Origin: Chitinophagaceae bacterium
Lineage (GTDB): Bacteria; Bacteroidota; Bacteroidia; Chitinophagales; Chitinophagaceae
DNA length: 64,000 nucleotides
NCBI GenBank assembly: GCA_020437365.1
Contig: JAGQWM010000004.1
Coordinates: forward strand, 3,568 to 67,567
Direction: 5' to 3'
Shown: piece by piece, positions 3,867 to 11,361 of the stretch
How positions within the stretch are numbered: position 1 is the stretch's first letter
Layout: each line of letters begins with the position of its first letter
Notes under the pieces: generated by a model
What the model saw: only the letters and a program-made list of their open reading frames with translations
The model's database searches: none
Told to the model about the DNA's origin: nothing
Made by a program: the position numbers and the translations under genes

Positions 3867-3891
3867 TCCATTTGGGCTCAGAGCAATTGCT

Positions 3892-3899
3892 TACATTTG
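3892..3899 (+). promoter_or_regulatory. Bacteroidota sigma70 -7 element for mutL
   Basis: TACATTTG matches TAnnTTTG; 23 nt lie between it and the GTG start. Confidence 0.7.
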
Positions 3900-3922
3900 T
3901 CAGTTCAGTAAAGAAACAGAGA

Positions 3923-5758
3923 GTGCCAGATAAAGTAACCTTATTACCCGACAATATCGCCAACCAGATTGCAGCCGGAGAAGTCATACAGCGGCCTGCC
4001 AGTGCTGTCAAAGAGTTACTCGAAAATGCAGTAGATGCCGGAGCCACATATATACAATTAATTGTTGCCGATGCCGGTAAATCTTTAATTCGGGTGATTG
4101 ATAACGGCAGCGGCATGTCGGAAACTGATGCCAGGATGTGTTTCGAACGACACGCCACATCCAAGATAAAAGATATTGAAGACTTATTTCATATCCGCAC
4201 TATGGGCTTTCGTGGCGAAGCCTTGGCTTCCATTGCTGCCGTGGCGCAGGTAGAAATAAAAACCAAAAGAGAAGAAGACGAAACAGGTGTTTGTATTGAA
4301 ATAGAAAATAGTGTTGTAAAAAAACAAGAACCTGTAGCTACACCAACCGGCACCAACCTGGCCATGAAAAATTTATTTTTTAATGTGCCGGCCCGAAGAA
4401 ATTTTTTGAAAAGTAATGCAGCCGAAATGCGACATATCGTTGAGGAATTTACACGGGTAGCCATGGCATTTCCTGAAATACTTTTTACGCTGACACATAA
4501 TGATCAGCAGCTTTTTCATTTAGAACCGGGCAATTTAAAACAACGGATTATTCAATTGTTGGGCAATGCATACAAAACAAAATTAGTAGCGGTAAAAGAA
4601 GACACCGACTACATGAATATTTACGGTTTTGCAGGCAAGCCTGATGCGGCTAAAAAAACCCGGGGCGACCAGTATTTTTTTGTCAACAATCGTTATATCC
4701 GCAGTGCTTATCTGAACCATGCGGTGATGAATGCTTTTCAGGATACCATTCCCAAAGATGTTTTTCCGGCTTATGTTTTATTCATCGACCTCGACCCGAC
4801 TGTCGTTGATGTCAATGTGCATCCCACCAAACAGGAAATAAAATTTGAAGACGAAAAAATTATTTATGCATTTGTACAGGCTGCTGTAAAACATGCTTTG
4901 GCACAATTCAGCGTTACGCCCACTTTAGATTTCGACCTTGATGCTACGATTCAACAATTACCATCCGTATCGCAGCCTTTTACCGAAGAAAAAAAATCGG
5001 CAGCAGCTGCCAGTTCTATTTTTAAAGGATTTAGCCAAAAGCATCAGGCACATTTTATTGAGAAAACTGAAAATACTGACCCGAAAGCTATCGGATTGAA
5101 GCACTGGAAAAGTTTTTATGATGATTCGTATGCCGATAACCTGGCGTCAAATCCCGAAAAACCAATTCAACATTTACCTTTCGCTCATCGCTCTGCTGCT
5201 GATTGTAAACAATTGTTGAATACGTATATAACTGTTCCTTCAGCCGATGGGTTTCTACTCATTCACCAACAGGCGGCACATGAAAGAGTTTTGTATGAAA
5301 AATATTTAATGGCCAATAAAATCCATCCTATTGCTTCGCAAAAAACGATGTTTCCCACGACAGTGGAATTGCCTCCGGCCGATGCAGCCATCATGCAGGA
5401 AATAACCGACGACCTTCATTTATTGGGATTCATCATTGAGCCATTTGGCAGAAATGCATTTGTGGTTCAAGGCTCACCAGCCGATGTAGCACAAGGCAGT
5501 GAAAAACAAACGATAGAAGATTTATTGGAACAATATAAAAATTTCAGTAGCGAAGTAAAATTTTCATCTCGTGAAAAAATTATCCGTAGCCTGGCCAAAC
5601 AACAAGCCATTAAACCGGGGACTTCGCTTTCTGTTACTGAAATGCATCAATTGATTGCTGATTTATTCGATTGTGAAATGCCTAACAGCACTGCCGATGG
5701 CCAACCCACTTATTTATCTTTTAGCAAAGAACAACTGGAAAGGATGTTTGGTAAATAA
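3923..5758 (+). CDS. mutL: DNA mismatch repair endonuclease MutL
   Basis: IAAGEVIQRPASAVKELLENAVDAGA, DNGSGM, RHATSKI, GFRGEALASI, DVNVHPTKQE, HQQAAHERVLYE. Likely GTG start at 3923 (ORF track starts 3872). Confidence 0.97.
   Translation: MPDKVTLLPDNIANQIAAGEVIQRPASAVKELLENAVDAGATYIQLIVADAGKSLIRVIDNGSGMSETDARMCFERHATSKIKDIEDLFHIRTMGFRGEALASIAAVAQVEIKTKREEDETGVCIEIENSVVKKQEPVATPTGTNLAMKNLFFNVPARRNFLKSNAAEMRHIVEEFTRVAMAFPEILFTLTHNDQQLFHLEPGNLKQRIIQLLGNAYKTKLVAVKEDTDYMNIYGFAGKPDAAKKTRGDQYFFVNNRYIRSAYLNHAVMNAFQDTIPKDVFPAYVLFIDLDPTVVDVNVHPTKQEIKFEDEKIIYAFVQAAVKHALAQFSVTPTLDFDLDATIQQLPSVSQPFTEEKKSAAAASSIFKGFSQKHQAHFIEKTENTDPKAIGLKHWKSFYDDSYADNLASNPEKPIQHLPFAHRSAADCKQLLNTYITVPSADGFLLIHQQAAHERVLYEKYLMANKIHPIASQKTMFPTTVELPPADAAIMQEITDDLHLLGFIIEPFGRNAFVVQGSPADVAQGSEKQTIEDLLEQYKNFSSEVKFSSREKIIRSLAKQQAIKPGTSLSVTEMHQLIADLFDCEMPNSTADGQPTYLSFSKEQLERMFGK
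5080..5094. repeat. 15-nt near-perfect palindrome apparently inserted in-frame in the mutL linker
   Basis: CCCGAAAGCTATCGG; its core CCGAAAGCTATCGG is one mismatch from the perfect palindrome CCGATAGCTATCGG. Removing it converts T-D-P-K-A-I-G-L-K-H-W to T-E-L-K-H-W. Confidence 0.7.
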
Positions 5759-5774
5759 ATGCAATTTATTGCAA

Positions 5775-5806
5775 GTCATTCCGGCATTGCGCCGGAATCT
5801 TTTTTT
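5775..5806. terminator. REP-like palindrome/terminator between convergent mutL and lipoprotein genes
   Basis: GTC-ATTCCGGC-ATTGC-GCCGGAAT-C followed by T7. Confidence 0.7.
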
Positions 5807-10299: not shown

Positions 10300-11361
10300 A
10301 TGAAAACATTACAGGAAAAAATCGAAGCATACAAAAAGGAAATTTCGGCATTTACCGCCGCTGATGAAAATGAAATTGAATCATTTCGTATCAAATATCT
10401 CGGCTCCAAAGGTTTGGTAAAATCCATTATGAGCGAAATGAAAAATGTATCACCGGACAATAAAAAAGAAGCCGGTTTGCTGCTCAATGAATTCAAAACC
10501 TTTGTAGAAGAAAAATTTGCGTCATTAAAATCGGCAACTGCTACGGTTGATACTACCGGTGATGGCAAATCTTCTTCGATAGATTTTAGTTTACCCGGCG
10601 ACCCCATGCCGGTAGGGGCCCGCCACCCTGTCGTATTGATGCGCAATAGGATTGTTTCTATTTTCCAACGGTTAGGATTCGCAGTAGCAGAAGGACCGGA
10701 GATTGAAGACGATTGGCACAATTTCGGCGCCTTGAATTTACCCGAACACCATCCGGCCCGCGACATGCAGGATACTTTTTATATTCAACAAAATCCTGAT
10801 TGGGTTTTGCGTACACACACAAGCAATGTGCAAATCCGGGAAATGGAAAAAGCCAGCCTACCGGACAGACAGGGAAAACTGCCTATTCGCATGATTATGC
10901 CGGGCAGGGTGTATAGAAATGAAACTGTGAGTGCAAGAAGCCATTGTTTTTTTCACCAGATAGAAGGGTTGTATGTAGATGAAAATGTTTCTTTCGCCGA
11001 CCTCAAACAAACTTTGTATTTTTTTGTAAAAGAAATGTATGGCCAAGATGTAAAAGTTCGCTTCAGGCCTTCATATTTTCCTTTTACCGAACCCAGTGCC
11101 GAAATGGATGTCAGTTGTTTTATCTGTGGCGGTAGTGGTTGTAATATTTGCAAAAAAACAGGATGGGTAGAAATCCTGGGCTGTGGTATGGTGCATCCGA
11201 ATGTTCTTAGCAATTGCAAGATAGACCCCAATAAATACACAGGATTTGCGTTTGGCATGGGCATTGAACGACCTGCCATGTTGAAATACGGCATCAATGA
11301 TATTCGGTTGTTCAGTGAAAATGATATTCGATTTTTACAACAGTTTACCGCTGCGATATAA
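10300..11361 (+). CDS. pheS: Phenylalanine--tRNA ligase alpha subunit
   Basis: HPARDMQDTFY, LRTHTSNVQIR, PGRVYRNE, FHQIEGL, RFRPSYFPFTEPSAEMD, WVEILGCGMVHPNV, GFAFGMGIER. Confidence 0.98.
   Translation: MKTLQEKIEAYKKEISAFTAADENEIESFRIKYLGSKGLVKSIMSEMKNVSPDNKKEAGLLLNEFKTFVEEKFASLKSATATVDTTGDGKSSSIDFSLPGDPMPVGARHPVVLMRNRIVSIFQRLGFAVAEGPEIEDDWHNFGALNLPEHHPARDMQDTFYIQQNPDWVLRTHTSNVQIREMEKASLPDRQGKLPIRMIMPGRVYRNETVSARSHCFFHQIEGLYVDENVSFADLKQTLYFFVKEMYGQDVKVRFRPSYFPFTEPSAEMDVSCFICGGSGCNICKKTGWVEILGCGMVHPNVLSNCKIDPNKYTGFAFGMGIERPAMLKYGINDIRLFSENDIRFLQQFTAAI
10853..10873. repeat. 21-nt degenerate palindrome apparently inserted in-frame in pheS
   Basis: CCAGCCTACCGGACAGACAGG. Removing it converts EMEK-ASLPDRQ-GKLPIR to EMEKGKLPIR; 5 of 8 stem pairs remain. 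Confidence 0.75.

Follow-up and report, generated by a model that had tools for sequence, protein, structure and literature searches.

Does the short palindrome that interrupts the mutL gene of a Chitinophagaceae bacterium represent a mobile element and, if so, of what kind? The question is raised by a 64,000-nt stretch of contig JAGQWM010000004.1 (assembly GCA_020437365.1; hereafter the window), in which the sequence CCCGAAAGCTATCGG lies in frame within the coding sequence for MutL and falls in the linker between the domains of the protein (residues ~403-408). An earlier note on this DNA had described a 15-nt insertion in the linker and had regarded it as a miniature non-autonomous element tolerated in a protein loop. 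The explanation favoured here, which we consider probable as a whole, is that window positions 5079-5096 are a decayed copy of a nano-element, a perfect palindrome of 18 bp that is distributed across the Bacteroidota. Comparisons of filled and empty alleles show that, on entry, this element evidently replaces a trinucleotide, in most cases AGT or AAT, with a net gain of 15 nt. By the same kind of evidence, the AGT across the Glu-Leu codons (GAG|TTG) in the disordered linker of MutL is shown to have been filled, as it appears, repeatedly within the genus.

The mutL insertion and its empty counterparts

The genome to which the window belongs (G000) comprises 2.63 Mb in 161 contigs and is 100% complete by marker genes. 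In its mutL gene the local codons read ACT GAC CCG AAA GCT ATC GGA TTG (T-D-P-K-A-I-G-L), and removal of positions 5080-5094 leaves ACT GAA TTG (T-E-L), in agreement with the earlier note, which had also stated that related MutL proteins read ELKHW at this place. The statement was borne out by an alignment of MutL from 22 genomes of the same genus and seven other families of the order. Most congeners carry ...(G/N/S)E-----LKHW, with a clean gap of five residues at the insertion site, and all seven of the other families are empty there. The closest relative, a metagenome-assembled Chitinophagaceae genome with a syntenic contig (P0002; ~90% amino acid and 86% nucleotide identity), which was retrieved from a collection of 5.8 billion proteins, is likewise empty (EKSEKTE-----LKHW; ACC GAG|TTG AAA). 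The G000 copy thus originated, or was gained, after divergence from the closest relative known.

At the nucleotide level, the sequence G|AGT|TG of this sister species corresponds to GA-CCCGAAAGCTATCGG-ATTG in G000, a net gain of 15 nt in which a trinucleotide is replaced. The 18-nt unit at 5079-5096, ACCCGAAAGCTATCGGAT, sits where the empty alleles have the AGT that spans GAG|TTG. A target-site duplication of 1-3 nt was rejected, since inspection of the filled and empty sequences revealed none at the mutL junction.

The same position is occupied in several other members of the genus. A perfect palindrome was detected there in G018 (GAC CCG ATA GCT ATC GGG TTG; DPIAIG) and a degraded version in G016 (EPKGVG). 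From the perfect 18-mer ACCCGATAGCTATCGGGT, present at this site in G018, G123 and G148, the window copy departs at two positions: its left arm has T>A, and position 17 has G>A. The core of the window copy is of the CCGAWAGCTWTCGG type and thereby marks it as a decayed member of the family described below. It lies one base from either of two symmetric variants, ATAGCTAT and AAAGCTTT, so that its earlier description as a hybrid of two forms is accurate. The folding energy of the window copy is -2.5 kcal/mol, versus -6.6 kcal/mol for a perfect mutL copy.

Within G000 itself the motif stands alone. One exact match was found in 2.63 Mb, the sole match with a single mismatch (contig C55, ...LLGLARKLSEK...) is native Peptidase_M20 coding sequence, and decayed extra copies showed no excess over composition-matched palindromic controls. 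A repeat family within G000 was therefore rejected, and the mutL copy is a relic member rather than part of an active family in this genome. Since none was found in 21.8 kb of syntenic DNA of the sister species either, the single copy is best interpreted as a remnant of earlier activity or as an imported allele. The linker that holds it is of low identity among the orthologs, with many indels, and varies in length among relatives, so that the five additional residues are likely to be functionally neutral for MutL.

A palindrome family of the Bacteroidota

The 14-nt core CCGAWAGCTWTCGG was detected in 64 of 101 sampled genomes of the genus, at 0-133 sites in each. At least ten copies were present in 23 of the 101, and the highest counts per genome were 133, 110, 86, 73, 64 and 60, whereas the reversed pattern, used as a control, gave no matches (in one case, one). 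A few of the single hits in the genus represent native rpmE sequence (HPDSYR) and not insertions. The genome-wide excess implied by the earlier note is thus absent from G000, with its one copy, and evident among its congeners.

These counts bear on the simplest alternative, according to which the insert arose by chance or local mutation, as an ordinary linker indel outside any family, made palindromic by template switching, for example. MutL linkers are indeed rich in indels, and G000 has this copy alone. However, congener genomes contain as many as 133 occurrences of the same 14-16-mer, against a reversed control near zero, and a perfect palindrome occupies the identical mutL site in other species. 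This alternative is refuted, and practically no probability attaches to it.

Beyond the genus, the exact 16-mer CCCGATAGCTATCGGG was found in at least 120 stretches of a collection of species-representative genomes. All of the 80 stretches listed belong to the Bacteroidota, including members of the Bacteroidales, Flavobacteriales, Chitinophagales, Sphingobacteriales and Cytophagales. The consensus, TCCCGATAGCTATCGGGA, is composed of the 14-nt core CCGATAGCTATCGG and two outer pairs, which are variable but complementary. Among 89 copies, base -1 is T in 81% and base +1 is A in 82%, and the flank beyond ±2 is not conserved. The outer pair is complementary in 85 of the 89, and in 14 of the 18 copies in which it is other than T..A. 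Symmetric inner variants (AAAGCTTT) also occur, and hybrids like the window copy are rare.

The earlier note had further referred to palindromes that recur in Bacteroidota as PIAIG, PKAFG or PDSYR peptides. The two sequences concerned, CCCGATAGCTATCGG and CCCGAAAGCTTTCGG, proved to be real, dispersed palindromes of this phylum, which yield PIAIG, PDSYR or PKAFG in open frames. Copies in genes do exist, as the note had it, but the family is mainly intergenic: only 12 of the 89 copies fall in predicted genes (~87% intergenic), though ~82% of that DNA is coding, and the dependence of these counts on simple longest-ORF (open reading frame) gene calls is to be held against the reading proposed here. 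A 400-kb portion of G094 contains 16 copies, 15 of them between genes. The 12 genic copies are divided equally between PDSYR (six) and PIAIG (six), with none in the third frame, which in the common form contains TAG.

Viral sequences carry the element as well. The exact 18-mer was present in 46 viral-contig stretches, and a Mu-like phage contig (IMGVR_UViG_3300009870_000707; 22,993 bp; L312, L315, L317), the proteins of which include Portal_Mu, Mu F, Gp36 and AntA, contains five copies, all of them intergenic. Their density, about one copy per 4-5 kb, is above that of any bacterial genome examined.

An 18-mer that is identical across a whole phylum might also be a functional site under selection (an operator, a recombination site, an RNA or DNA hairpin signal, or the PIAIG peptide) rather than selfish DNA. 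The symmetric, compensated variants and the nucleotide conservation inside mutL would suit such a site, and the two 7-nt arms around AGCT may resemble the binding site of a dimeric protein. However, congeners have anywhere between 0 and 133 copies, with none at all in many complete genomes. The copies are not placed consistently with respect to genes and lack a recurring neighbour gene, they are found in both of the open frames, within tRNA pseudo-fragments and inside one another, and those in the mutL genes of G000, G016 and G109 have decayed without any sign of harm. We therefore regard a selected function as improbable.

Exchange of three bases for eighteen

All of the informative comparisons of filled and empty sites (mutL, including the sister species, an alanine-racemase-like ORF, and G016 versus G109) gave a net gain of 15 nt, so that the reading frame is never shifted. 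G016, with 110 copies, and its close relative G109, with 10, provided three such sites: AAA|AGT|TCC is changed to AAA-CCCCGATAGCTATCGGGG-ACC, AT|AGC|TG to AT-TCCC..GGGA-TG, and AA|AGT|TA to AA-ACCC..GGGT-TG. In the first of these the outer pair is not derived from the target, which indicates that the 18-mer replaces three bases and is not a plain 15-nt insertion. The pure 15-nt model was thus rejected, as outer pairs can differ from the target both here (C..G) and in tRNA sequences, where AGT gives way to T..A. Of the earlier proposal, the insertion into a protein linker stands, while the 15-nt insert has to be replaced by an 18-nt unit that takes the place of three bases.

The replaced trinucleotide is usually AGT or AAT. 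In the alanine-racemase-like ORF the exchange adds five residues, SDSYR, relative to G000. Copies nested in copies (TCCC-TCCCGATAGCTATCGGGA-AGCTATCGGGA) were observed at L135:1-120 (reverse strand) and L181:940-975, so that the element can target itself. Hairpin tips were rejected as a general target, since flanking stems with at least six of eight pairs were only in modest excess (3.4% versus 0.6%).

Transfer RNA loci are a further recurrent location. In duplicated 5' tRNA fragments, situated upstream of an intact tRNA, the 18-mer replaces the AGT of the D-loop (Ser, Pro, Cys) or its AAT (Trp, Leu). Tandem arrays of tRNA fragments, with up to seven units (Trp, Cys, Ser, Pro, Val, Leu) followed by an intact tRNA gene, were observed at several loci (Table 1).

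Filled and empty mutL alleles within the genus

A pattern that covered the insert and its right flank identified filled mutL genes in 7 of 147 genomes of the genus, and 21 of the 120 nearest MutL clusters were filled. On a tree of the 120 proteins this distribution requires at least 11 changes of state, eight of which are forced by well-supported branches. When the filled genes were constrained to a single clade, the approximately unbiased (AU) test gave p = 4e-39 for the whole-gene DNA tree and p = 0.016-0.037 for the linker only. One ancestral insertion common to all filled mutL genes was therefore rejected on the basis of the trees and the AU tests, of which the linker-only test is weak; the linker is mosaic.

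Differences in occupancy extend to the level of strains. Two proteins from one metagenome study, 98% identical, differ by the five residues, and their DNA reads GGAGTGAG|TTGAAG in the empty allele versus GGAGTGAG-CCGATAGCTATCGGC-TTGAAG in the filled one. The filled allele of this pair is a perfect 18-mer, AGCCGATAGCTATCGGCT (E-PIAIG-L), which is distinct from the ACCCGATAGCTATCGGGT of G018, G123 and G148 (D-PIAIG-L). Two perfect 18-mers, ACCC..GGGT and AGCC..GGCT, are thus found at the same AGT of mutL, which suggests that insertion took place at least twice; an intergenic example of the AG..CT form is present in G016 as well. Moreover, three lineages have the 15-mer without any variation (0 of 15 sites), while their flanks vary at 37-40% of sites (P ~5e-4). 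The copies would then be younger than the species, or else constrained at the nucleotide level.

The at least 8-11 changes could in principle all be losses, if one old insertion had been followed by many precise excisions, in which case the empty sites would be revertants and the element reversible. Palindromes are prone to deletion. The empty alleles, however, display the ordinary variety of synonymous codons (GAA CTG, GAG TTG, GAT TTA, GAA TTA), as if they had never been filled, which makes precise excision unlikely. In addition, no direct repeats flank the unit to guide a precise deletion, the retention of the perfect palindrome by several lineages speaks for a young age of the copies, and the outgroup families are all empty. 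Overall, a reversible element of this type seems quite improbable.

A more serious alternative holds that one or two ancient insertions in mutL were carried from species to species within the genus when linker patches underwent homologous recombination, the G000 copy having been imported or inherited and the site being no hot spot. Several observations favour it and weigh against repeated insertion. The ancestry of the linker is mosaic: G018 is nearest to the empty G003 over most of the gene and to the filled G055 in the linker, and in G148 the sequence 5' of the insert agrees with filled alleles, that on the 3' side with the empty G004. Single-nucleotide polymorphisms between the two 98%-identical strains cluster near the insert (11 per 140 nt versus 30 per 1760 nt), and over the 90 nt on the 5' side the similarity among filled alleles is slightly higher (0.78 versus 0.73, p = 0.02). 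The hybrid core of G000, a rare form, is seen again in the distant P0010 and, in degraded shape, in G109, which fits shared descent or transfer of the mutL allele better than independent hits, unless the I>K change was selected. The two junction types, finally, differ at only two third-codon positions, and drift between them is unlikely but possible.

Homologous recombination of filled alleles is accordingly a contributor to the mutL pattern, and the mosaic linker and the clustered polymorphisms imply that part of the patchy distribution may have arisen in this manner. As an account of the whole, it is opposed by the flanks of the filled alleles, which are otherwise no more alike mutually than they are to empty alleles, by a 15-mer that is identical in three lineages despite flanks that differ by ~40%, and by the two distinct perfect palindromic junctions; no donor allele was identified. 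Spread by recombination from one or two insertions is unlikely in our view, although it deserves more weight than the other alternatives. The occupancy of the mutL site argues instead for repeated insertion, as judged from sequence comparison, with recombination of the linker as a confounder.

Candidate mobilizing functions

No mobilizing enzyme was found via GIY-YIG nucleases, Y1 transposases of the REP-associated tyrosine transposase (RAYT) type (REP, repetitive extragenic palindromic), neighbouring genes or cargo-bearing forms. The term mobile element therefore rests on the distribution and on the filled and empty sites rather than on observed movement, a further point to be set against the proposed reading.

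GIY-YIG nucleases were rejected as the mobilizer because the PF01541 counts, for one family in few genomes, do not track copy number: G000 has seven matches (one copy) and G012 six (no copies), while G048, G016 and G094 have six, seven and ten, with 133, 110 and 73 copies, respectively. Y1/RAYT genes are present in 65 of the 101 genomes, and several of the genomes that bear them have zero copies of the palindrome. Among large genomes the correlation between copy number and Y1 count was not significant (rho = 0.19, p = 0.12). RAYT/Y1 was rejected as well, since six Y1 loci lacked the palindrome within ±1.5 kb and were flanked by other hairpins.

The Y1/RAYT genes of the genus (~155 residues) are flanked at ~50-100 nt by GTAG-type REPs of the form TTTGCCCC-GTA-GGGGCAAA (L274-L278). 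This REP-RAYT system is separate from the palindrome; G000 has four Y1 matches.

No recurring family of neighbouring genes was evident near the 89 copies in 80 loci. The possibility that the palindrome is the zero-cargo junction of a longer element with terminal inverted repeats was also rejected, as a search of four data sets revealed no split half-sites within 4 kb, and the number of orphan half-sites was that expected by chance. In G016, a 2.1-kb interval between two 38-nt arms was considered in this respect and rejected, since it contains an ordinary secreted protein and no transposase. Phage-encoded enzymes beside the copies of the Mu-like contig were rejected similarly, the proteins there being only structural and antirepressor proteins.

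G016 also carries a unit of ~180 nt that resembles a transposable element of the miniature inverted-repeat type (MITE), at L234:1070-1249 and L223:6508-6694, with terminal inverted repeats of 35-38 nt. These repeats, GGGTGCATTTCAAA-TCCGATAGCTATCGGA-TGTCG, contain a T/A variant of the palindrome. At L229:1062-3265, two of the MITE-like arms flank the gene for a secreted beta-helix-like protein of 556 residues.

As an element without a gene, the palindrome would have to be written in trans, by an activity for which a hairpin may serve as substrate or as template. Judging by the symmetric variants, one arm might template the other, or perfect pairing might be required. We tentatively propose, as a possibility that falls somewhat short of probable, that an activity so far undescribed, supplied in trans by cells of the Bacteroidota or by their phages, puts a fixed 18-bp palindrome where an ART trinucleotide had been, with neither duplication nor cargo and with the arms kept complementary, perhaps through templating of one by the other. 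This activity would be current enough to account for differences between 98%-identical strains and would repeatedly hit the mutL linker and D-loop positions of tRNA, the tRNA hits surviving only beside a local duplication that preserves an intact tRNA.

If true, the palindrome would be among the smallest insertion elements known, with 18 bases in, three out and the frame always kept, a geometry not obviously produced by any described transposition chemistry. It adds peptides to housekeeping proteins, remodels tRNA loci and occurs in phage genomes across a major phylum, with consequences for genome annotation (spurious PIAIG or PDSYR insertions), for the evolution of protein linkers and for strain typing. 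The mutL site constitutes a natural assay, in which close strains that differ by the element could help to find the responsible activity.

Relation to known small repeats

The sequence of the palindrome was not found in the literature searched, in which keyword searches gave only work on REPs, MITEs and Rickettsia palindromic elements (RPEs). New in this work are the census across the genus, the strain pair with filled and empty mutL, the two junction types, the negative results for RAYT, GIY-YIG and cargo, and the phage copies.

The earlier note had compared the insert with RPEs. These elements, attributed to Ogata et al. (2000/2002), are reportedly ~100-150 bp long and restricted to Rickettsia and its relatives, where they form several sequence families. 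The likeness lies in palindromic non-coding repeats that are found in frame within genes, housekeeping genes included, that are tolerated in surface or linker regions and that add a peptide; the mutL ORF, too, is intact with all of its domains. In contrast, the palindrome is an 18-bp unit (net +15) that is phylum-wide, mainly intergenic and replaces three bases. The comparison thus holds at the functional level only: the sizes differ about tenfold, and no sequence relationship between the two was found.

The small dispersed repeats (SDRs) of Nostoc and other cyanobacteria, reportedly described by Elhai et al. in 2008 (a study cited in PMC3116915 and PMC2884548) as very small mobile repeats of ~21-27 nt, are similar in that they are tiny dispersed palindromic units with no coding capacity, no target duplication, nesting and a mobilizing mechanism that has not been established. 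They differ in phylum and sequence. The present palindrome is, moreover, perfect and spacerless, with symmetric variants, an exchange of 18 bases for three and a preference for ART that extends to the D-loop of tRNA.

REPs, and the REP doublets forming hairpins (REPINs), which are mobilized by RAYT (Y1) transposases, are also short, GC-rich and hairpin-forming, mostly extragenic, and high and variable in copy number among relatives (PMC3733652, PMC3116915). The consensus TCCCGATAGCTATCGGGA, however, lacks the GTAG or CGTC tag, whereas the true REPs of this genus carry GTAG, and a cognate Y1 gene flanked by the palindrome was not found. We know of no REPs that give clean in-frame insertions of +15.

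Unlike MITEs, the palindrome lacks an internal segment; instead of duplicating its target it removes three bases, and it has neither split nor cargo-bearing forms. The highly iterated palindrome HIP1 of cyanobacteria is likewise a short perfect palindrome, strongly over-represented in coding and non-coding DNA, but HIP1-like motifs accumulate by point substitution, while the palindrome appears as +15 indels in all informative comparisons. Elements associated with homing endonucleases or GIY-YIG nucleases differ in that neither a linked nuclease nor a nuclease count that tracks copy number was found here.

Other features of the window

For the window itself the significance of these findings is modest, since the gene for MutL is intact and the fossil copy within it is probably harmless. 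The coordinates are collected in Table 1. In a public collection the mutL product is 611 residues long, which implies a start at about 3923. The Pfam domains HATPase_c_3, DNA_mis_repair and MutL_C were identified, the first two ending by residue 343 and MutL_C starting at 447.

Table 1. Features of the mutL region of the window, and tRNA-fragment arrays in other genomes
Feature	Position	Strand	Description
mutL host gene	3872..5758	+	Intact 628-codon ORF, longest frame from TTG 3872; domain matches
MutL interdomain linker	4901..5209	+	About residues 344-446 of the 628-residue frame, from domain boundaries 343/447; holds the insertion site
Net 15-nt insertion CCCGAAAGCTATCGG	5080..5094	+	Sequence match within mutL; E-L to D-PKAIG-L in MutL; clean 15-nt/5-residue gap in orthologs and sister species
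Full 18-nt unit A-CCCGAAAGCTATCGG-AT	5079..5096	.	Filled versus empty alleles at nucleotide level; weakened hairpin
Intrinsic terminator 3' of mutL (ATTCCGGC-loop-GCCGGAAT and T-run)	5775..5806	+	Ordinary; outside the palindrome family
tRNA-fragment arrays	L061:8100-8540 (G094:C1:568100-568540), L076:5650-5920, L105:1530-1690, L140:7240-7400, L135, L240

The C-terminal metal-site motif of MutL (residues ~448-460; window ~5213-5250) reads HQQ(A/S)AHER...E throughout the genus. Sister families have DQQAAHER at the same site, and the textbook form is DQHA(X)2E(X)4E. HQQAAHER as a sign of decay in G000 was rejected, as it is a genus-wide trait of the lineage.

In pheS, the segment ASLPDRQ at window positions 10853-10873, read in the first inspection of the stretch as a 21-nt degenerate palindrome insert, shows no sequence relation to the mutL palindrome. 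It is identical in PheS of the sister species (L283) and is thus older than the split between G000 and this relative.

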